Shown: positions 3,730 to 32,076, counted from the first letter of the stretch. The stretch is 61,951 nucleotides of DNA from an uncultured Candidatus Saccharibacteria bacterium (GCA_964453135.1 CAYVOL010000004.1:1-61951); one strand, 5' to 3'. A program made the numbers and translations. Notes: generated from the letters alone by a model not told the origin.

Positions 3730-4632
3730 ATGAAGTTAAAACCGCTAACGCCTGAAGAGAAAAAGATAATTGAAGAAAAAGACACGGAAGTTCCTTTTAC
3801 CGGTAAATACGAAAATTTTTACGGAAAAGGGATTTATATTTGCAAAAGATGCGGAACGCCCCTTTATCGTTCTGAAGATAAATTTGACGCGAAATGCGGC
3901 TGGCCAAGTTTTGATGATGAAATTACAGGAGCGGTAAAGAAAATTCTCGACTCTGACGGCATTCGTACGGAAATAATTTGTGCCCGTTGCGGAGCGCACC
4001 TTGGCCATGTCTTTAGCGGCGAAAGACACACTCCGAAAAATATCCGCCACTGCGTCAATTCTGTTTCGCTGGAGTTTGTCGCTCAAAATGAAATTAAGAA
4101 TAAAAAAGAAACTGCTTATTTTGCCGGCGGCTGTTTCTGGTGCACAGAAGCTGTTTTCAAAAATCTAAAAGGCGTTTTGTCGGTAGCGCCGGGGTACTCT
4201 GGCGGAGAGATTGAAAATCCGACTTATGAACAAGTTTCCGGCGGCAAGAGCGGCCATGCGGAAACAATTAAAATAGAATATAACCCCTATGTTATTTCTT
4301 ACGAAGCGCTGTTGAAAATTTTTTTTGACACCCATGACCCGACAGCCGTAAATCGTCAGGGAGACGACATCGGCCCGCAATATCGCTCCGCGATTTTTTA
4401 TGTCAGCGGAGACCAGAAAGAAATCGCGGAAAATTTTATCAAAGCATTGGAAGAAAATAAAATTTATTCCCAGCCGATAGCCACGGAAATAAAGCCGTTG
4501 GAAAAATTTTATGAAGCCGAAGAGTATCATAAAAATTATTACGAAAAACATAGAGACGCCCCGTATTGCCAAATCGTTATTTCTCCGAAGCTGGCGAAAT
4601 TAAAGGAGGAATATAAAAATTTTCTGAAATAA
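3730..4632 (+). CDS. msrAB: Bifunctional methionine sulfoxide reductase, MsrB-MsrA fusion
   Basis: N-terminal MsrB (CxxC, CGWPSF, HLGHVF, RHCVNS) followed by MsrA (FAGGCFWCTE, QYRSAIF, AEEYHKNY). Confidence 0.95.
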   Translation: MKLKPLTPEEKKIIEEKDTEVPFTGKYENFYGKGIYICKRCGTPLYRSEDKFDAKCGWPSFDDEITGAVKKILDSDGIRTEIICARCGAHLGHVFSGERHTPKNIRHCVNSVSLEFVAQNEIKNKKETAYFAGGCFWCTEAVFKNLKGVLSVAPGYSGGEIENPTYEQVSGGKSGHAETIKIEYNPYVISYEALLKIFFDTHDPTAVNRQGDDIGPQYRSAIFYVSGDQKEIAENFIKALEENKIYSQPIATEIKPLEKFYEAEEYHKNYYEKHRDAPYCQIVISPKLAKLKEEYKNFLK

Positions 4633-4721: not shown

Positions 4722-5978
4722 ATGTTGCGATATTTAATCAGTGAAATGCTTGCGGGGTTTGTTGGGGCAGTTGCCGCGCTTGTTATTATAGTTCAGTTTT
4801 TGAAACAGCCGGCTGGCCGCGCGTTATTACAATTTATTAAAAAGCCCGTGGTCGCGGTTTCTTTGATTGTCTTGATAATCGCGTTTTTCTGGGGACTGCT
4901 TTCCAATAGGACATATCCGCCGAGTTTCGCGATGCCGCCGTTTATGCATTCTAACGCTCCGGGCGCAATGCCCCCCTCCATTCCTTTTGGAAATTTAATT
5001 GAATTTTTTAAAGATAGAAATAGATTTGAAATGGTAAGCGATATTAGCGAGGACCCGAACGCCGCGCCGAAAGAAGCGCAAAAGCCGGACGCCGACGGCA
5101 TTGTGCGCATTCATCTGACTGCCAAAGAAGTTATTTCCGAAGTCGCGCCGGGAATCTATTTCAATTACTGGACTTATAACGGGAAAGTTCCCGGTCCGAT
5201 GTTGCGCGTGAAAGAGGGAGATACAGTGGAAGTTTCATTAACCAATGATCCGTCAAGTTTGCACGAGCATAACATTGATTTGCACGCCGTGACCGGTCCC
5301 GGCGGCGGCGGGTCTGTTACCAAAGCCGCTCCCGGCGAAACAAAAACATTCCGCTGGAAAGCGCTGGCTCCCGGGCTTTATATTTATCACTGCGCCGTGC
5401 CTAATGTCAGTACGCATAATTCCCACGGCCAGTACGGGCTTATTCTTGTTGAGCCGAAGAGTGGGCTTCCTAAAGTGGATAAAGAATTTTATGTGGTACA
5501 GGGAGAACTTTATACTGCTGGACAACTTGGCAAAAAGGGGCTGGTTTCTTTTGATCCGCAGGCGCTTATTGACGGAAATCCGAATTACGTCGTTTTTAAC
5601 GGCAAAGTGGAAAGCGCGCCGCGCATGCGCGCCAAAGTGGGGGACACAATCAGAATGTATGTGGGCAACGGCGGCGTTAATTTGATTTCTTCTTTTCATA
5701 TCATCGGAGAAATTTTTGACACGGTTTATCCGAACGCGAGCATCGGAGGGGCAATGGAGAAAAACACGCAAGTGGCGCAAGTGCTTCCCGGCGGAGCGAG
5801 CATTGTTGAATTTAAGCTGGACGTGCCCGGAAAATATTTGCTGGTTGACCACGCTTTGGCGCGGATGAACAAAGGCGCTTGGGCGGTTCTTGACGTAAGC
5901 GGAAGCGAAAATAAAGATATTTTTTCTTCTGTTTCGGCAACCTCTTCTCCTTCTTCGGACAAAATGACGAAGATGTAA
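4722..5978 (+). CDS. nirK: Copper-containing nitrite reductase (AniA/NirK type) with N-terminal membrane segments
   Basis: HNIDLH (His183/Asp186/His188), YHC (His223/Cys224), His232, SSFHIIGEIFD and LVDH. The axial Met position is Gln237. Confidence 0.9.
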   Translation: MLRYLISEMLAGFVGAVAALVIIVQFLKQPAGRALLQFIKKPVVAVSLIVLIIAFFWGLLSNRTYPPSFAMPPFMHSNAPGAMPPSIPFGNLIEFFKDRNRFEMVSDISEDPNAAPKEAQKPDADGIVRIHLTAKEVISEVAPGIYFNYWTYNGKVPGPMLRVKEGDTVEVSLTNDPSSLHEHNIDLHAVTGPGGGGSVTKAAPGETKTFRWKALAPGLYIYHCAVPNVSTHNSHGQYGLILVEPKSGLPKVDKEFYVVQGELYTAGQLGKKGLVSFDPQALIDGNPNYVVFNGKVESAPRMRAKVGDTIRMYVGNGGVNLISSFHIIGEIFDTVYPNASIGGAMEKNTQVAQVLPGGASIVEFKLDVPGKYLLVDHALARMNKGAWAVLDVSGSENKDIFSSVSATSSPSSDKMTKM

Positions 5979-6067: not shown

Positions 6068-6631
6068 ATGGAAAATTTAATCGGTAAAAAATTACCTTCC
6101 TTTGAACTGGAAGCTTATCACGACGATAAAATCAAAAAAATTAAAATAGCGGAATTAAAAAAGTGGCTGGTTTTGTTTTTTTACCCGGCTGATTTTACTT
6201 TTGTCTGCCCCACTGAATTGGGGGAGTTGGCGGGAAAATATCAAGAATTCAAAAAATCTGGAGCGGAAATTTTAAGCGTCAGCGCGGACACGGTTTTTGT
6301 CCACAAGGCCTGGCACGACAGCTCCCCGACAATTTCCAGCATAAAATTTCCGATGTTGGCCGATCCGACCGCCAAACTCTGCCGCGCTTTGGGAACATAT
6401 ATTGAGGAAGAGGGAGTATCTCTTCGCGCCAGCTTTATCGTTTCTCCCGATGGGATAATTAAAGCTTACGAGATTCACGACAACAGCATCGGAAGAAGCG
6501 CCAATGAACTTTTAAGGAAACTGCAGGCGGCGAAATTTACGGAAACAAATAAGGGATTAGTTTGTCCGGCCAGCTGGACTCCGGGTAAGAAAACTCTAAA
6601 GCCCGGACTGGATTTGGTGGGTAAGATTTAA
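6068..6631 (+). CDS. ahpC: 2-Cys peroxiredoxin AhpC
   Basis: FYPADFTFVCPTE peroxidatic motif and VCPASW resolving motif. Confidence 0.95.
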   Translation: MENLIGKKLPSFELEAYHDDKIKKIKIAELKKWLVLFFYPADFTFVCPTELGELAGKYQEFKKSGAEILSVSADTVFVHKAWHDSSPTISSIKFPMLADPTAKLCRALGTYIEEEGVSLRASFIVSPDGIIKAYEIHDNSIGRSANELLRKLQAAKFTETNKGLVCPASWTPGKKTLKPGLDLVGKI

Positions 6632-24174: not shown

Positions 24175-24225
24175 CGATAAATTTTAAATCCCAAATCCCC
24201 CATGTCTTTTGATTCCCAATCCTCT

Positions 24226-24491
24226 GTCATTCTGAATCCCGCCCCTTTTGTCATTCTGAATCCGCCAGCAGGCGGAGAAGAATCTATTGTGTCATTTTGA
24301 ACCGCCAGCCGGCGGAGAAGAATCCCGTATTTATGTGGGTTTGATCATGTGAGATCCTTCGTCCGCCAACTGGCGGACTCAGGATGACACGTTTCGCTGT
24401 CATCAAGATGACACGTTTCGCTGTCATTCTGAGCCGAAGGCGAAGAATCTTACGAGATCCCTCGTCCGTCAACTGACGGACTCAGGATGAC
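24226..24491. repeat. Large REP-like cluster followed by decayed AGGATGAC tails to about 24552
   Basis: Multiple GTCATT heads and GATCC...ATGAC tails, with CCGCC-hairpin inserts. Confidence 0.9.
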
Positions 24492-24576
24492 ATATTTTAT
24501 TAGACCAGGATGACCAAAAAGGATTAGGATGACTATTTTCACTCGGGATGATAATTAGGATTTTACATATCAACTT

Positions 24577-25146
24577 ATGAAACGTTTCGACCAACAACTT
24601 GTCGCGGATTATTTTGAAGGAGACGAAAAGTCTTTGGAAATTCTTTTCGGCCGGCATCTTAAAGCGATCTATGGTTTTGTCTATCGTCGGTATGCCGGCA
24701 ATTCGCAGGATGCGGAAGACATCACTCAGGAATCTTTTGTGAAAGCCTGGCGTAATCTTAAAAAATTTGATCAAAGTAAAAGTTTCAAGGCCTGGATTTT
24801 TGCCATTGCCAAAAACACGGCCCTTGATTTTTTGAAAAAGAAAAAAGCAGTTTTGTTTTCCGAATTTGAAAATCAGGAAGGAAAGAATGTTCTTATGGAA
24901 ACTCTTGCCGCGCCATTTTCGTCGCTTCAGGAAATTTTAGAAAAATCCGCAACGGTTGAGATGTCCAATTCGGCGATGGATTTACTTTCGCCCAGTCATC
25001 GCCTGGTTTTGTCTCTTTATTACGGCCAACAATTTAATTTTCGCGAGATAGCCGAGCGGTTAGGCGAGCCGCTTAATACTGTGAAGTCGCGCCATCGCCG
25101 CGCGCTCGCGTCTCTTAAAAAATCCTTCTCCGAACCGCCGCTGTAA
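24577..25146 (+). CDS. ECF-type RNA polymerase sigma factor
   Basis: Region 2 (AEDITQE.F.KAW.NL..F, F..W.F.IA.N...D) and region 4 (L...HR.VL.LYY......EIA..LG.P.NTVKSR..RA). Confidence 0.92.
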   Translation: MKRFDQQLVADYFEGDEKSLEILFGRHLKAIYGFVYRRYAGNSQDAEDITQESFVKAWRNLKKFDQSKSFKAWIFAIAKNTALDFLKKKKAVLFSEFENQEGKNVLMETLAAPFSSLQEILEKSATVEMSNSAMDLLSPSHRLVLSLYYGQQFNFREIAERLGEPLNTVKSRHRRALASLKKSFSEPPL

Positions 25147-25171
25147 ATTTTTTCGGAATTGCGAAAGAAGC

Positions 25172-25199
25172 GCACCAAAATCCGTCTTTTTGCCGTAAT
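25172..25199 (+). promoter_or_regulatory. Putative ECF-sigma promoter, copy 1
   Basis: GCACCAAAA-N13-CGTA, repeated with identical spacing at 27013-27040. Confidence 0.55.
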
Positions 25200-25223
25200 A
25201 ATAAGAAACTGGTTAATAATACA

Positions 25224-26519
25224 ATGTCGGCTATCAAGAACAAAACCGGGTTGTTTTTTATTGTCTTTCTGTCGGCGTTGCCGCTGATTTTTTGGGCTTC
25301 TTTGAAGCCAATCAGCGAGAGATTTTCCAGTTTTCCGATTGCCTTGACAAGTTTGGGGCAAATTGCCGGATTAACGGGAATGGCGCTGTTCGCTCTGGCT
25401 TTGATTTTAAGCAGCCGGCTGAAATTTTTTGAAGACTATTTCGGCGGGCTGGATAAGTTATATTTTACTCATAAGACCGCGGGCATCGCGGCTTTTGTGT
25501 TCCTTCTTTTTCATCCGCTTTTTCTTGCCGGAAGTTATTTTTTTGTTTCCGCCCGGGAAGCCGCCTTGTTTTTATTGCCGTCAGACAACTGGACGCTGAA
25601 TTTCGGCATTTTTTCCTTGCTTTTGATGATACTGCTTGTTATTTTGATTTTTTTCGTTAAACTGCCGTATCAGGTATGGAAATTTTCCCATAAATTTATG
25701 GGACTGTCTTTTTTTCTTGCCGGCCTGCATGCTTTTCTCGTGCCCAGCGATATTTCGCGAGCTATGCCCTTGAAAATTTATATGTTTAGTTTGTCATTTA
25801 CCGGACTGGTCTTCTATTTTTACCGCGCTGTTCTCGGAAAATTTCTAGTGAAAAAAACGGAGTATGAAGTTAAGAGCGTTCGGCTGCTGGGCGGGCAAAT
25901 TATGGAAATAGAAATGTTGCCTAAAAATCAGCCGATAGAATTTTTATCCGGACAATTTGTCTTTGTTCAATTTTTTCAAAAAGGAATAAGCCGCGAAGTT
26001 CATCCGTTCTCCATTGGTTCTTCTCCGAAAAACCAAACTTTGAAAATAGCCGTAAAAATTTTGGGAGATTATACCGCTCAGTTAAAAAATTTGAAAAGCG
26101 GAGCGTTGGCGAAAGTGGAAGGACCTTTCGGGAAATTTTTCTCCCGCGGCTTGTCCGACAAAAAGCAGATTTGGATTGCCGGAGGCATCGGCATCACTCC
26201 GTTTTTAAGCAAAGCAAGAGCCGGCGATTTTGACCGCGAAATTGATTTATATTATTGTGTTAACGATGAAAAAGAAGCGGTATTTCTCGGGGAACTTTTG
26301 GAAATTTCCAAAAACAGCAATTATTTTAAGGCCGCGCCGTTTTTTTCTTCCGACCGCGGATTTTTAACCGCTTCTCTGGTGGAAAAATCAAGCGGCTTAA
26401 AAGGGAAGGATATTTTTCTTTGCGGTCCGCCTCTAATGATGAGAAATTTGAAAAAACAATTTAAGGAATTGGGAGTTCCCGGAGAAAATATCCATTCCGA
26501 AGAATTTCAGCTGGCATAA
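25224..26519 (+). CDS. Ferric-reductase/NOX-like transmembrane flavocytochrome (TM heme domain plus FAD- and NAD(P)H-binding domains)
   Basis: His pairs THK...FHP and SHK...LHA in TM helices; HPFSI, AGGIGITPF, LCGPP.M and C-terminal HSEEF. Confidence 0.88.
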   Translation: MSAIKNKTGLFFIVFLSALPLIFWASLKPISERFSSFPIALTSLGQIAGLTGMALFALALILSSRLKFFEDYFGGLDKLYFTHKTAGIAAFVFLLFHPLFLAGSYFFVSAREAALFLLPSDNWTLNFGIFSLLLMILLVILIFFVKLPYQVWKFSHKFMGLSFFLAGLHAFLVPSDISRAMPLKIYMFSLSFTGLVFYFYRAVLGKFLVKKTEYEVKSVRLLGGQIMEIEMLPKNQPIEFLSGQFVFVQFFQKGISREVHPFSIGSSPKNQTLKIAVKILGDYTAQLKNLKSGALAKVEGPFGKFFSRGLSDKKQIWIAGGIGITPFLSKARAGDFDREIDLYYCVNDEKEAVFLGELLEISKNSNYFKAAPFFSSDRGFLTASLVEKSSGLKGKDIFLCGPPLMMRNLKKQFKELGVPGENIHSEEFQLA

Positions 26520-26529
26520 AATTAAATTT

Positions 26530-26991
26530 ATGATGAAAAGAATAGTTTTTGTTTCGTTGTTTATTTTCGCGATAGCGGTCGCGATAATTTTGACCGCAGG
26601 CCTGGCCTTTTATAAGAAGGAGAACGGAAAAGATGTTTTCTTTCCGTCGCCGCCGGCGGAGTCAAGCGCGGCTTTCCAATCAAGCGGTTCCGGTAAAATT
26701 GAAAACAGCAAAACAGGCCAGGCCGGCGTTTTGTCTTCCAAAGAAGTAGCGAAGCATAATTCCTCAGGCGATTGCTGGCTGATTATTGACGGCAAAGTTT
26801 ACGATGTTTCTTCTTATATAGATTATCACCCCGGAGGACCGGAGGCTATTATTCCTTATTGCGGCAAAGATGCTACTCGGGCTTTCCAAACAAAAGATAG
26901 AGAAGAATCCCGAAACCATTCGTCTCGGGCGTACAATTTGCTGAAAAATTATTATGTCGGCGATTTGAACCGGCAAACGGCCAATAACTGA
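26530..26991 (+). CDS. Membrane-anchored cytochrome b5-like heme-binding protein
   Basis: N-terminal TM; HN...DCW.IIDGKVYDV....HPGG...GKDAT..F....HS..A...L..YYVG. Confidence 0.9.
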   Translation: MMKRIVFVSLFIFAIAVAIILTAGLAFYKKENGKDVFFPSPPAESSAAFQSSGSGKIENSKTGQAGVLSSKEVAKHNSSGDCWLIIDGKVYDVSSYIDYHPGGPEAIIPYCGKDATRAFQTKDREESRNHSSRAYNLLKNYYVGDLNRQTANN

Positions 26992-27012
26992 TTTGGCCAG
27001 CCGGCAATGGAC

Positions 27013-27040
27013 GCACCAAAATAAGCCCCTTGTTCGTATT
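27013..27040 (+). promoter_or_regulatory. Putative ECF-sigma promoter, copy 2
   Basis: GCACCAAAA-N13-CGTA, as at 25172. Confidence 0.55.
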
Positions 27041-27047
27041 AGTCAGT

Positions 27048-27449
27048 ATGGCAGGGAACCGCGGTAAAAAAATATTTTCTCGCGTTCCGCTTGGGTCGCC
27101 AGCGGAGCTTTTGAACAAAATAATGGCCCGTGTCCGCGAGGAGGAAAAATTTTTTGCCAAAAGACAGATTTTTATTTTTTCCGCTGTTGTCGCCTCGGCT
27201 GCCGCGATTTTTCTTCCCGCTCTCGGCATTTTCCGTCAGGAATTTTTTCAAACAGGGTTTTTCCAATTTTTACCGCTTTTGTTTTCCGATTTCGGAGCCA
27301 TAGCGGGTAATTGGCAGGACTTCGGTTTGCTTCTGCTGGAATCGTTTCCAGCGGCGAGCATAGCTGTTTTTCTGACAGGGGCTTTTATTTTGCTTTGGTC
27401 GTCAAAAAATTTTTTCCGAGCAATAAAAACTTTTTCTTATGGATACTGA
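27048..27449 (+). CDS. Hypothetical membrane protein, possible anti-sigma factor (start ATG 27048)
   Basis: Short N-terminal P.EL..KIM.RV segment followed by TM helices; downstream of the ECF sigma. Function is inferred. Confidence 0.55.
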   Translation: MAGNRGKKIFSRVPLGSPAELLNKIMARVREEEKFFAKRQIFIFSAVVASAAAIFLPALGIFRQEFFQTGFFQFLPLLFSDFGAIAGNWQDFGLLLLESFPAASIAVFLTGAFILLWSSKNFFRAIKTFSYGY

Positions 27450-27978
27450 CAAAACGTCAAAAGGTAAAAACGAATTTTCGTCGCTTTCCGTTGCTAATAA
27501 TTTTTGTCAATCAAAAAAATTCAGGATTGTTTTGGCGGCGGTCGGCTGCCTGATTGTTTTGATTATTGTGTTTAAAACCGGAGAATTTGTGGGGTACAGA
27601 AAGGCGCGTTTTTTTGAGCGGTGGGGGGAAAATTATCATCGCAATTTCGGCGGTCCGCGCGATGGATTTTTTCCTAGTTTCCGGTATGATTTTGATGATA
27701 GCACGCCGTTTGGCGCTTCTTTCAGCGCCCCTTCCAGTATTCACGGCGTTTTCGGAACAATCATCAAGATTGACAACACGGCCAGCTCAACGTTTTTGAC
27801 TGTTAAAGGAGAAGACAATATGGAAAAAATTGTTTCTCTTTCCGATAATACGACTATTGTCAGCCGCCGCGACATTATCAAAGCATCGGAACTTAAAATT
27901 GACGACCGCGTGGCAGTCATCGGCGCTCCCAATGAGCAGGGACAAATTGAAGCCAAATTTATCCGGGTATTTCGGTAA
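27439..27978 (+). CDS. Membrane-anchored protein with DUF5666-like C-terminal domain
   Basis: One TM, then GTIIKID...T.I......LKI.D.V.VIG.PN..G.IEAK.IR. Confidence 0.65.
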   Translation: MDTDKTSKGKNEFSSLSVANNFCQSKKFRIVLAAVGCLIVLIIVFKTGEFVGYRKARFFERWGENYHRNFGGPRDGFFPSFRYDFDDSTPFGASFSAPSSIHGVFGTIIKIDNTASSTFLTVKGEDNMEKIVSLSDNTTIVSRRDIIKASELKIDDRVAVIGAPNEQGQIEAKFIRVFR

Positions 27979-27994
27979 TTTCGCCGTATAATTT

Positions 27995-29722
27995 ATGACA
28001 CCCCAATTCATTAAAAAAATTTTATCCAACAAGATATGGCTCACCGGCGCCGTTGTTTTGGTTTTGGCGTTGGGCTATGGCGGGTATAAATACTTTTTCA
28101 GCGGCAATCCGGCCCCTCAATATGTTTCTTCCCAGATACAAAAAGGGACAATTGTTGCTTCTGTTTCCGGCACCGGACAAGTTTCCAATTCCAGCCAAAT
28201 AGACATTAAATCCAAAGTTTCCGGAGACGTTGTTTATATCGGCGCGCGAAACGGCCAAGAGGCGGGGTCTGGTCAGCTTCTGCTTCAATTAGACGACGTT
28301 GACGCGCAGAAAGCATTGCGCGACGCCCGGACCAATCTTGATTCCGCCAAGCTGGCTCTGGAAAAACTAAAAGAGCCGCCGGACGCTTATTCTCTTTTGC
28401 AGGCGGAAAACGCTGTGGCGCAAGCCAAAGATTCTCGGAAAAGCGCGCAGGACAATCTGCAAAGCGCTTACGAAGATAGGTTCAATTCCGTTGCCAACAC
28501 TTTTGTTGATTTGCCTCCGATGATGAGCGGATTGCAGGACATTCTTTTTTCCACGGCGCTTTCCGGCGGCCTTCAGCAGAATGTTGATTATTATTCTTCG
28601 GCCGTGCAAAGTTATGACTCGGCCGTTTTAACGCTTCGCGACGATGTTAGGGACAAATATAATTTAAGCCGCCAGGCCTATGATAAAAATTTCAGCGATT
28701 ACAAACTGATTTCCCGGTTTTCTGACCAGACGACAATTGCCGGCATCACCAATGAAACTTACCAGACATCCAAACTTATCGCCGACGCCCTCAAGGGCGC
28801 CGCTAATCTTATCCAGTTTTATCAGGACAAATTAACCGAGCATAATCTCAAAATTAATCCCGCTTCCAATACCCAGCTGGCCAGCTTAAACGCTTTTGTC
28901 GGCCAGATTAATTCGCACCTTTCCAGCCTTTTGTCAATTCAAAACAGCATTCAATCTTACAGCGACGCCGTTACCGCTGCCGAACGTTCCATTTCCGAAA
29001 AACAAGCGGCTTTGGATAAACTGAAAGCCGGTCCCGACGTTTTGGATATTCAATCAGCCGAGTTGACTGTTAAGCAGCGGGAAAACGCGCTCTTGGACGC
29101 CAAAAAAAATCTTGACGATTACTATATCCGAGCGCCGTTTGAAGGCATTGTCGCCAAAATAAATTTTGACAAAGCGGAAACAGTTGCCGCGGGAGCGAGC
29201 GCGGCGACTTTCATCGTCAAGCGGCAAATTGCGGAAATTTCCCTTAACGAAGTTGACGCGGCAAAAATTAAAATCGGGCAAAAAACGACTTTGACTTTTG
29301 ACGCGGTTCCGGATTTGACCCTTACCGGAAAAGTAACGGAAGTAGACACCATCGGCACGGTTTCGCAGGGTGTAGTTTCTTACAATGTTAAAATCGCGCT
29401 GGACGCTCAAAACGACAAAATCAAGCCGGCGATGAGCGTTTCCGCCAGTATTATCACCGAGGTTAAGCAGGATATTCTTTTAGCGCCCAATGCGGCTGTT
29501 AAATTTGACAGCGCGGGCAATTATGTTGAGGTGCTGGTGAACGGCGCGCCGCAGAAAAAAAATGTTAAAACCGGAATTTCCAATGACAAAGAAACGGAAA
29601 TTATTAGCGGAGTAAACGAAGGAGACGCTGTTATTACCCAGACAATAGCATCTAATAGTCAGTCAGCCCAATCCTCCCAGCAGTCGAGCATTTTCCGGTT
29701 GCCCGGAACAGGCGGGAGATAG
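27995..29722 (+). CDS. Efflux periplasmic adaptor / membrane fusion protein (MacA/HlyD-like) with long coiled-coil hairpin
   Basis: VSGTGQV, KVSG.V, IRAPF.G.V, EVDAAKIKIGQ, V.Y.V...KP.MS, V.TG.SN...TEI.SG. Confidence 0.88.
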   Translation: MTPQFIKKILSNKIWLTGAVVLVLALGYGGYKYFFSGNPAPQYVSSQIQKGTIVASVSGTGQVSNSSQIDIKSKVSGDVVYIGARNGQEAGSGQLLLQLDDVDAQKALRDARTNLDSAKLALEKLKEPPDAYSLLQAENAVAQAKDSRKSAQDNLQSAYEDRFNSVANTFVDLPPMMSGLQDILFSTALSGGLQQNVDYYSSAVQSYDSAVLTLRDDVRDKYNLSRQAYDKNFSDYKLISRFSDQTTIAGITNETYQTSKLIADALKGAANLIQFYQDKLTEHNLKINPASNTQLASLNAFVGQINSHLSSLLSIQNSIQSYSDAVTAAERSISEKQAALDKLKAGPDVLDIQSAELTVKQRENALLDAKKNLDDYYIRAPFEGIVAKINFDKAETVAAGASAATFIVKRQIAEISLNEVDAAKIKIGQKTTLTFDAVPDLTLTGKVTEVDTIGTVSQGVVSYNVKIALDAQNDKIKPAMSVSASIITEVKQDILLAPNAAVKFDSAGNYVEVLVNGAPQKKNVKTGISNDKETEIISGVNEGDAVITQTIASNSQSAQSSQQSSIFRLPGTGGR

Positions 29723-29779
29723 AGTACGATGATTTGCAAGGATTTGTAAGAAATCCGAGCGTTGTTTATATTTCGGAAC

Positions 29780-29963
29780 GAGATCCTTCGTCCGCCAACT
29801 GGCGGACTCAGGATGACGGAAACGGTTAGAATGACGCCTTGTTGTCATTCTGAGCCCCGACCACTTGTCATTCTGAGCGAAGCGAAGAATCTACCATGTC
29901 TTCGTTATGTCATTCTGAATCCGCCAACTGGCGGACTCAGGAGGACAATTAAAACGGGATGAC
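29780..29963. repeat. REP-like cluster inside the exporter operon
   Basis: GATCCTTCG-CCGCCAACTGGCGG-ACTCAGGATGAC tail and three GTCATTCTGA heads. Confidence 0.9.
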
Positions 29964-30013
29964 AATAAAACAACAACGATGAAAAGTGTAAATAATACTA
30001 TGAAATCTCACCG

Positions 30014-30727
30014 ATGATTGAATGCCAAAATATCGTCAAAATTTACAAAAACGGAGATTTGGAAACCTTAGTATTGAAGGATGTTTCTTTCAGAATAGAA
30101 GCGGGAGAGTTTGTGGCGATTATGGGTCCGTCTGGCTCGGGCAAATCAACACTAATGCATCTTTTGGGCTGTCTTGACGCTTTAACTTCGGGAAAATATT
30201 TTTTGGACGGCCATGATGCCTCCCGGCTTTCCGAAGACGAGCTGGCGAAAATCCGCAATCAAAAAATCGGTTTTGTTTTTCAGTCTTTTAATTTGCTCCC
30301 GCGCGCCGATGTCGTGCGCAACGTCAGTTTGCCTTTGATTTACAGCGGAGTAGAGAAAAAGAAGCGCGATGAAGCGGCGAAGGCGTCTTTAACGGCCGCG
30401 GCTTTTCCGGAAAATTTTTGGTTTCATCTGCCTAATCAATTATCCGGCGGAATGATGCAAAGAGTGGCTATTGCCCGCGCTCTGGTTAATAATCCGGCGC
30501 TCGTTTTGGCGGACGAGCCGACCGGAAATTTAGATACTAAAACCGGCGAAATGGTGCTGGATACTTTTCAGCGCCTTAATGCGGAACAAGGTCGCACTGT
30601 TGTTTTAATCACGCACGAGCTTTACGTGGCGGAACACGCCCGGCGGATAATTCATATCCGCGACGGAAAAATTATCAGCGACGAGAACGTAAAACATAGA
30701 AAAATAGCCAATCATCACACGTTTTAA
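30014..30727 (+). CDS. ABC transporter ATP-binding protein (MacB/LolD-like)
   Basis: [44 protein letters not shown]. Confidence 0.93.
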
Positions 30728-30864: not shown

Positions 30865-32076
30865 ATGACTTTTCGCGATTTATTTTTTGAAACAATTATT
30901 TCTTTAAGCGCCAATAAAGTTCGTTCTAGTTTGACTATTTTAGGCATTGTTATCGGCATTGCTTCGGTGGTGGCCATGCTTTCTATCGGCCAGGGCGCGA
31001 AAAACTCCATTCAATCAAGCATTGAAGGGCTTGGTTCTAATCTGCTGACGATTTTGCCGGGCATTGTTCAGCCGGGCCGGGGGATTATTTCCGCGGGCAG
31101 AGGCACGGCGCAAACTTTAAAGAACGCCGACCTTGACGCGTTGAAACAAGTCAATACTATTTCCGCGATTTCGCCCGAAGTCCAGCGCCGTTTTCAGGTA
31201 GCGGCTTCTACCGGCAATAACACTAACACCACCGTGTCCGGCGTCGAGCCGGCTTATGTTTTCGTCCGCAATGTTTCTTTGGCAAAGGGAAGTTTTATTT
31301 CTGAAAGTAACTTGCGCAGTTTGGGGAAAGTAGCGGTTTTGGGGGCAAACGCGGCGAAAGATCTTTTCGGCGATACTGACCCGATTGATAAAACCGTGCG
31401 CATCAATAAAATTATTTTCCGCGTAGTCGGAGTTCTTAATCCTAAAGGCGGAATAGGATTTTCCGGCCCTGATGACCTGGTGATTATTCCTTTGACCACG
31501 ATGCAGAAAGTTATTGCCGGCGTTGATTATTTAAGTATAATTTCTATCAGCGTTGCCGATAAAGAACAAATGAACGCAACCCGCGATTTAATCAGCAATG
31601 CTTTATTGAGACAGCACCGGGTTATGGAAGCGGATTTTTCCATCATTTCGCAGGAAGATATTTTAGGCGCTTTGTCGCAGGTGGTAAATACTTTTACAAT
31701 TTTCCTTACTTCCATCGCGGGAATTTCGCTGGTTGTTGGCGGCATCGGCATTATGAATATGATGCTTACCACGGTTACCGAGCGTACCCGCGAAATCGGC
31801 TTAAGAAAAGCCATTGGCGCCCGGCGCCGCGACATCAGCCGCCAATTTTTAATGGAAGCAGTGGCGCTTACTTTTTTCGGCGGTTTAGTCGGGATAATTT
31901 TGGGCTGGATTGCTTCTTTGGCGGTATCGCAATTCGCCGGCATTTCCACCAGCGTTTCTTTCATGGCGATTGCTCTGGCATTTGGCGTGGCGGCGGTTAT
32001 CGGAATTGTTTTCGGTTATTATCCCGCGCGCAAAGCCGCTCGCATGAATCCCATTGAGGCGTTAAGATATGAGTAG
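30865..32076 (+). CDS. ABC transporter permease (MacB/FtsX-like)
   Basis: RS.LTILGIVIGIASV, VGGIGIMN.M...VTERTREIG.RKAIGA, YPARKAAR.NPIEALRYE. Confidence 0.93.
   Translation: MTFRDLFFETIISLSANKVRSSLTILGIVIGIASVVAMLSIGQGAKNSIQSSIEGLGSNLLTILPGIVQPGRGIISAGRGTAQTLKNADLDALKQVNTISAISPEVQRRFQVAASTGNNTNTTVSGVEPAYVFVRNVSLAKGSFISESNLRSLGKVAVLGANAAKDLFGDTDPIDKTVRINKIIFRVVGVLNPKGGIGFSGPDDLVIIPLTTMQKVIAGVDYLSIISISVADKEQMNATRDLISNALLRQHRVMEADFSIISQEDILGALSQVVNTFTIFLTSIAGISLVVGGIGIMNMMLTTVTERTREIGLRKAIGARRRDISRQFLMEAVALTFFGGLVGIILGWIASLAVSQFAGISTSVSFMAIALAFGVAAVIGIVFGYYPARKAARMNPIEALRYE

Follow-up and report, generated by a model that had tools for sequence, protein, structure and literature searches.

SpNOX, the NOX-type enzyme of Streptococcus pneumoniae (8QQ7, 8QT6, 8QTA), is the closest relative of known structure to the enzyme reported here. 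Its outer haem is highly exposed and the canonical O2 site is absent, it donates electrons directly to cytochrome c under anaerobic conditions, and its authors suggest a protein acceptor that is as yet unnamed (10.1101/2023.10.17.562464; PMC5676040). O2 has been questioned as the physiological acceptor despite its turnover in vitro (10.1101/2023.10.17.562464), and SpNOX is reportedly no true ferric reductase (10.1101/2023.10.17.562464; PMC5676040). The two structural papers on SpNOX leave the in vivo substrate of bacterial NOX-like enzymes open. Here we describe a gene pair, encoding a NOX-like flavocytochrome and a membrane-anchored cytochrome b5 (b5), within positions 24577-27449 of a 61,951-nucleotide stretch of DNA (the window, meaning the whole stretch that was analysed) from an uncultured Candidatus Saccharibacteria bacterium (GCA_964453135.1 CAYVOL010000004.1:1-61951). 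The genome to which the window belongs, as contig C4, measures 613 kb, is 95% complete and falls among relatives of the Patescibacteria type. Our data suggest that the two proteins probably form a two-gene transmembrane electron-export module, which would carry electrons from NAD(P)H to the outside of the cell.

Electron export through a surface protein has a precedent in the flavin-based extracellular electron transfer of Listeria (Ndh2, EetA/B, PplA), in which a fermentative monoderm passes electrons from NADH to a surface-tethered redox protein and on to external acceptors, using quinone and flavin carriers. That system and the pair described here have no homologous proteins, and the pair would work without quinones, through b haem. 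In MsrPQ (E. coli MsrQ/YedZ with periplasmic MsrP), a membrane haem protein with a ferric-reductase domain passes electrons to a partner protein outside the cytoplasmic membrane, and this is the precedent cited in the SpNOX papers (10.1101/2023.10.17.562464; PMC5676040). Unlike the NOX-like protein, MsrQ lacks a fused dehydrogenase domain, and the electrons go to a molybdoenzyme instead of a b5. The gene pairing itself has already been published: a 2021 preprint described ferric-reductase-like PF01794 genes lying no more than 10 kb from PF00173 genes in 185 of 7645 genomes of the candidate phyla radiation (CPR), proposed a pFre/cytb5 membrane complex with no assigned function, and reported no such co-localisation beyond CPR (10.1101/2021.11.17.468889). 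With its PF01794 and PF00173 genes far closer than 10 kb, the window holds a further member of these clusters. The preprint centres on a Tyr-ligated, MAPR-like cytb5MY and on two-component regulators (its 'ancestral operon'; 10.1101/2021.11.17.468889), whereas the b5 of the window is bis-His and closest to clade-2 1CXY, and the regulator is a sigma factor of the extracytoplasmic function (ECF) type. What is new here is a member that has a single, bis-His b5 of the b558 type and lies behind an ECF-type motif, the occurrence of the same pair in DPANN archaea and Chloroflexi/Dehalococcoidia as well (lineages throughout as the records label them), a negative test of coupling to a nitrite reductase, and an explicit link to the acceptor of SpNOX.

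The NOX-like gene (25224..26519, + strand) encodes a SpNOX-type flavocytochrome of 431 aa, made up of a bis-haem transmembrane (TM) domain, an FAD domain and an NAD(P)H domain (Pfam: Ferric_reduct PF01794, 3.6e-13; FAD_binding_8 PF08022, 5e-13; NAD_binding_1 PF00175, 8e-9). Two haem ligand pairs, H83/H97 (H-x13-H) and H156/H169 (H-x12-H), do not vary among 32 aligned homologues, and the two bis-His haem sites were placed in TM3 and TM5. The motifs HPFSI, GGIGITP and CGP are all present, and HPFS (H260, P261), CGP, and G321, G323 and P326 of GGIGITP are likewise invariant across the 32 homologues. This motif set corresponds to the filters that were used to define bacterial NOX in 2017 (PMC5676040). 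The closest sequence match in the PDB is SpNOX (8QQ7, E 9e-39), at an identity of just ~25%. The AlphaFold2 model of the protein (pLDDT 90.9) contains six TM helices (2-27, 37-62, 76-106, 123-144, 149-172 and 181-203), and Foldseek comparison with 8QT6, 8QTA and 8QQ7 aligned 430 columns at E ~1e-27, with TM-scores of 0.81-0.83 by the query (TMq) and 0.87-0.89 by the target (TMt). Architecture, motifs and fold are therefore common to SpNOX and the NOX-like protein, and the TM-haem/FAD/NAD(P)H architecture given in the original prediction holds. By these sequence and structural marks the protein is a complete NOX/SpNOX-type enzyme with a predicted NAD(P)H-dependent activity. More than 900 homologues are present in the protein collection, mostly from CPR and some from DPANN.

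The b5 gene (26530..26991, + strand) lies 10 nt from the NOX-like gene and encodes a 153-aa cytochrome b5 of the b558 type with an N-terminal anchor and a predicted outward-facing domain (Cyt-b5 PF00173, 4.9e-26; 91 bits against a Pfam cut-off of 23.7). The axial ligands H99 (in HPGG) and H129 (in HS), together with C81 and C110, are invariant in 19 homologues, which makes the protein bis-His and of the b558 type rather than of the Tyr-ligated, MAPR-like class. The periplasmic bacterial cytochrome b5 of Ectothiorhodospira vacuolata, b558 (1CXY), is its top match in both sequence and structure: the family profile found 1CXY at E 3.4e-26 and 40% identity, and the AlphaFold2 model, in which a helix (2-32) and a disordered linker (30-61) precede the b5 fold, reached a TMt of 0.94 against it. 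C81 and C110 align with the two Cys of 1CXY, and a 4-residue insertion ahead of the second His is common to both proteins. While b558 is a soluble periplasmic protein of a proteobacterium, the b5 of the window is tethered through a long linker to an N-terminal helix that stays uncleaved, and is encoded beside a NOX-like gene.

We found that 78 of 85 b5 homologues share a short basic N-terminus (typically MKK), a TM helix of ~23 residues and a polar linker of ~45 residues. In 52 of these 78 homologues the N-flank of the helix carries more positive charge than the C-flank; in 14 the two are equal, and in 12 the C-flank is the more positive. The window's own b5 has Lys residues in its C-flank as well. 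Charge bias, tether, extracellular fusion partners and homology to b558 together indicate that the b5 domain is very probably extracytoplasmic. The original prediction had described a membrane-tethered b5 that could help carry electrons to the cell exterior, and had named a cytoplasmic b5 domain as what would speak against it. Because these four independent lines of evidence point outward, the predicted topology agrees with that description.

Our data indicate that the conserved unit is the NOX-like/b5 gene pair and not the sigma/exporter operon in which it lies here. In a scan using one genome per species we collected 185 b5 relatives and kept 80 loci, and a NOX-like gene stands directly beside b5 in ~55 of the 80, usually 0-20 nt away and sometimes overlapping. 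Three b5 homologues checked on their contigs all have a NOX-like gene immediately upstream within otherwise unrelated neighbourhoods. Paired loci occur in many CPR lineages, in Micrarchaeota and Woesearchaeota (DPANN), and in 2.3-Mb Chloroflexi/Dehalococcoidia genomes. In a sample of 401 genomes from the phylum Patescibacteria, a full-length NOX-like protein is encoded in 55, a Cyt-b5 domain in 96 and the two together in 29, which gives an odds ratio of 4.6 (p 6e-7, without correction for phylogeny). Read off the coordinates, the b5 gene is adjacent in 17 of the 29 genomes with both, that is, in 17 of the 55 NOX-like genomes. Since just 55 of the 401 genomes encode a full-length NOX-like protein at all, the adjacency in ~55 of the 80 b5 loci is far above chance. 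When the flanking open reading frames (ORFs) of 83 loci were clustered, the genes for a MacAB-type exporter and for orf179, both neighbours of the pair in the window, recurred in only 5-7 loci. Two candidates for a NOX-b5 fusion, P0078 (574 aa) and P0050 (490 aa), proved to have N-terminal extensions only.

The outward electron path is our best reading of the pair because a complete NOX-type enzyme is joined by a b5 that is very probably extracytoplasmic. Cytoplasmic NAD(P)H would reduce the FAD in the C-terminal dehydrogenase domain, and electrons would then traverse the membrane by way of the six-helix domain and its two bis-His b haems, from the inner to the outer. The exposed outer haem would pass them to the b5 domain, held outside the cell on its N-terminal signal-anchor helix and a flexible linker of ~40 residues, and reduced b5 would hand them to an outer acceptor, for example Fe(III), O2 or a further surface protein. 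We infer all of these steps from sequence, predicted structure and gene context. By analogy, the path fits the findings on SpNOX, namely its exposed haem, the lack of an O2 site, the reduction of cytochrome c and the suggested protein acceptor. In a haem-auxotrophic cell without respiration, the simplest use of the module would be to drain electrons from NAD(P)H or to provide the envelope with reducing power.

Relatives of the two proteins occur in other arrangements as well. Among the b5 relatives are large surface proteins with 2-4 tandem Cyt-b5 domains on linkers rich in Ser, Thr, Pro and Asn (L035:5284-7575, L065:2025-4010, L076:5989-7854, L080:5677-7191 and L011:6001-7002). Such proteins are fused to fn3 and InlB B-repeat (Flg_new_2) domains, many have an acidic C-terminal tail, and SH3- and PepSY-like segments were spotted in them by eye; all four kinds of partner are extracellular domain types. 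Some b5 proteins that lack a NOX-like gene are joined to DoxX-type or other membrane modules or are encoded beside them. A DoxX-b5-b5 fusion is present in L033:5164-6828 (record labelled Woesearchaeota), and DoxX-like ORFs adjoin NOX-less b5 genes at L035:7730-8206 and L065:4112-4609, which suggests that DoxX is an alternative membrane partner for outward b5 domains. Five further NOX-less b5 ORFs (L038, L042, L053, L070 and L073) carry a multi-TM N-terminal region with conserved His, for example an H-x14-H in ...YYIHTVTVSILFVPLFYLHS..., and this region may be another fused membrane b-type cytochrome. Finally, in one family (f27), ~226-aa ORFs that match the ferric-reductase TM domain alone, with no dehydrogenase domain, adjoin b5 genes at G101:C1:206023-207769, G266:C1:162529-163929, G281:C9:49236-50659 and G214:C3:44029-45004. 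The TM-only ORF with its b5 amounts to a split or MsrQ-like form of the module.

The original prediction had placed the pair in a lineage that generally lacks respiratory chains and haem synthesis. In agreement with this, a search of the genome for ALAD (HemB, PF00490) gave no homologue, against 11 positive genomes among 14 controls. The cell must therefore scavenge the three haems that the module needs, with the caveat that the genome is 95% complete. A Cyt-b5 Pfam domain above cut-off occurs in 96 of the 401 Patescibacteria (24%) versus 1 of 14 well-known control genomes, a striking frequency for organisms presumed to have no haem synthesis.

The pair is preceded by the gene for an ECF-type sigma-70 factor of 189 aa (24577..25146, + strand; Sigma70_r2 5.2e-21, Sigma70_r4 3.5e-14). 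The protein has regions 2 and 4 and no region 3 by Pfam; its best NCBIfam model is TIGR02937 sigma70-ECF (2.2e-31), and SigW-like models score next. Between the sigma and NOX-like genes, 26 nt 5' of the NOX-like ATG, lies a candidate ECF-type promoter, GCACCAAAA-N13-CGTA (25172..25197, + strand). A second copy (27013..27038, + strand) stands ahead of orf139, which encodes a small polytopic membrane protein. These are the only exact copies both in the window (expected 0.01) and in the whole genome. Homologues of orf139 occur in 12 of 120 class relatives, and in eight of these (L094, L096, L097, L098, L100, L103, L104 and L105) the motif CACCAAAA-N13-CGTA(TTA) is invariant right upstream of the homologue while its flanks vary; the core of copy 1 is identical to this conserved motif. 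The layout, a hexamer followed after ~16 nt by CGTA, resembles that of ECF promoters such as those of SigW. An invariant motif within non-conserved flanks makes a well-footprinted candidate for an ECF-type promoter, and the NOX-b5 pair thus appears here to have acquired a copy of the conserved regulatory site of the neighbouring operon. Because the motif is duplicated before the pair, the pair probably shares its regulation with the adjoining operon of membrane-protein and MacAB-like envelope-stress genes. In L044 (Staskawiczbacteria), where the gene order is NOX-b5-sigma-orf139-orf179-MacAB, the motif stands downstream of the sigma gene and ahead of the orf139 homologue, which is the next gene. 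In G472 (L096) no ORF of at least 90 aa, and hence no sigma gene, is present in the same orientation in the upstream 1.5 kb. A scan of the operon for sigma-70 promoters and terminators gave nothing decisive.

Several observations weigh against electron export by a regulated two-gene module. About half of the NOX-like genomes in the Patescibacteria sample have no b5 (26 of 55), 67 of the 96 b5-positive genomes have no full-length NOX-like gene, and among 26 b5 genomes without an adjacent NOX-like gene one has it elsewhere. Clustering of the flanking ORFs of the 83 loci yielded no third conserved partner gene. Among public runs, the locus sequence was found in four DNA runs from one mine drainage sample (metagenome) and in no RNA run. 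The ECF-type motif is absent before the sigma gene itself, and we infer both the recognition of the motif by the window's sigma factor and the docking of b5 directly on the outer haem. The two Cys of 1CXY reportedly form a disulfide (Kostanjevecki et al. 1999). The genomes without b5 would suit a self-sufficient NOX-like NAD(P)H oxidase or ferric reductase, which would deliver electrons to O2 or Fe(III) at the outer haem and for which b5 would be accessory or separate. SpNOX does turn over O2 in vitro (10.1101/2023.10.17.562464; PMC5676040), and mine drainage is an iron-rich kind of setting. We nevertheless consider this unlikely, since the pair is tight, recurrent and often overlapping in CPR, DPANN and Chloroflexi, and since SpNOX itself has no canonical O2 site and is reportedly no true ferric reductase (10.1101/2023.10.17.562464; PMC5676040). 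It is also rather improbable that the surface b5 domains are modules for the capture or relay of haem from a host or the environment, like the tandem NEAT domains of Isd proteins, with the NOX-like protein as a consumer of haem or as a haem/iron reductase. Haem handling was speculated upon in the 2021 preprint (10.1101/2021.11.17.468889), and the genome without ALAD, the flexible linkers bearing 2-4 surface b5 domains in a row and the unusual frequency of Cyt-b5 are consistent with it. Both axial His are invariant, however, and the fold is that of the electron-transfer b558/b5 class and not the MAPR-like one; the NOX-less relatives are joined to other membrane redox modules (e.g., DoxX-b5-b5), and the clustered flanks contained no haem importer conserved next to the pair.

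A different route would follow if the b5 domain were cytoplasmic (N-out, C-in) and were reduced by the FNR-like dehydrogenase domain, in the manner of eukaryotic b5 reductase and b5. The dehydrogenase domain of the NOX-like protein is homologous to b5 reductases (2EIX, 7ROM), and the Lys residues in the C-flank of the window's b5 would agree with this orientation. We regard it as very unlikely in view of the opposite charge bias over 78 homologues, the Cys pair conserved as in periplasmic b558, the fn3 and InlB-repeat extracellular fusions and the long low-complexity tethers. The original prediction had further speculated that the exported electrons reach a Gln-ligated NirK encoded ~20 kb upstream, forming a minimal nitrite-reducing chain from NAD(P)H through the NOX-like protein and b5. 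The NirK homologue (4722-5978, 418 aa) is of class II (AniA 1KBV, E 1.5e-96) and does have Gln at the position of the axial Met of the type-1 copper site in the AniA alignment, as had been claimed. It carries two N-terminal TM segments and is probably extracytoplasmic, the three genes are present in one genome, and the potentials of b5 proteins are such that a b5 could reduce a type-1 copper centre. The co-occurrence that the prediction had put forward as a check is not borne out. A NirK-like match (E <= 1e-10) was found in 1 of 50 b5-bearing genomes, and that match was weak (29% identity). None of the five other NirK genomes in the 401-genome sample carries a NOX-like or b5 gene; these are two with a Gln-type NirK (G379 and G242) and three with a NirK-like domain inside ORFs of ~1,300 aa. 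Given this, and with the genes 20 kb apart, NirK coupling was rejected as a system. The NOX-b5 pair is no dedicated donor to NirK, and the chance that it feeds the enzyme in this one genome is slight. Genes for MsrAB (3730-4632) and a peroxiredoxin (6068-6631) flank the NirK homologue.

Returning to electron export, we propose more tentatively that the pair could be the core of a quinone-free, all-b-haem extracellular conduit, with one to several tethered b5 'beads' relaying electrons through the envelope, switched on here by an ECF envelope-stress sigma factor, in which b5 would be the missing natural protein acceptor of bacterial NOX. This possibility is, in our estimate, somewhat short of even. 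The gene for a tethered, outward b5 beside the enzyme in many lineages offers a concrete candidate acceptor for bacterial NOX-like enzymes. If true, the conduit would give CPR and DPANN cells that are haem-auxotrophic and do not respire, as well as some Chloroflexi, a means of shedding reducing equivalents, with external acceptors or a host receiving the electrons. It would mean a simple haem-b electron export in CPR and DPANN, which are usually described as without electron-transport chains, and would bear on their redox balance, their iron chemistry and their dependence on hosts, including for haem.

The remaining genes of the locus lie downstream of the pair. The genes claimed at 24577-27449 are all on the + strand, and each domain call among them is backed by Pfam. 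orf139 reads as a 139-aa ORF at 27030..27449 (+ strand) and as 133 aa from the ATG at 27048 (27048..27449, + strand). Because motif copy 2 ends 9 nt before it, the ATG at 27048 is the likely true start. orf139 had been put forward as the probable anti-sigma partner; it matches no Pfam family at E <= 10 and no anti-sigma model in NCBIfam, so this assignment lacks a domain to support it, and its position beside the sigma gene in L044 is the sole observation in its favour. orf179 (27439..27978, + strand) encodes a single-TM protein of 179 aa with a weak DUF5666-like C-terminal domain (E 0.041, under the Pfam cut-off), and its homologues travel with orf139 and/or MacAB in L044, L016 and L096.

The exporter set that follows is complete by gene for a MacAB-type tripartite system: a MacA/HlyD-type membrane-fusion (adaptor) protein (27995..29722, + strand; HlyD_3 and HlyD_D23 by Pfam, TIGR01730 2.3e-38 and MacA 6e-22 by NCBIfam), a MacB-type ATPase (30014-30727, + strand; ABC_tran 2.7e-32) and an FtsX/MacB_PCD permease (30865-32076, + strand; MacB_PCD 7.6e-47, FtsX 5.8e-24). 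HrtAB and the MacAB-protoporphyrin link are precedents for a haem exporter. The top NCBIfam model for both ATPase and permease is the generic MacB (NF007826), and a haem-related role for the exporter was set aside for want of specific evidence. The sigma/exporter setting of the original prediction is present in the window; as a general feature of the module it does not stand, because MacAB is linked with the pair in just ~6 of 57 loci, in three gene orders and one subclade. The MacAB linkage is suggestive, and the ECF/MacAB setting is lineage-specific. The proposed tie to the ECF sigma factor likewise survives in part, through the motif that is invariant before the orf139 operon in eight relatives and duplicated before NOX-b5, and is weakened by the lack of that motif before the sigma gene. 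Dense intergenic repeats, hairpin- or REP-like (GGATGAC stutters and palindromic units), occupy 24200-24560 and 29740-29970 and so flank the block from the sigma gene to MacA on both sides.

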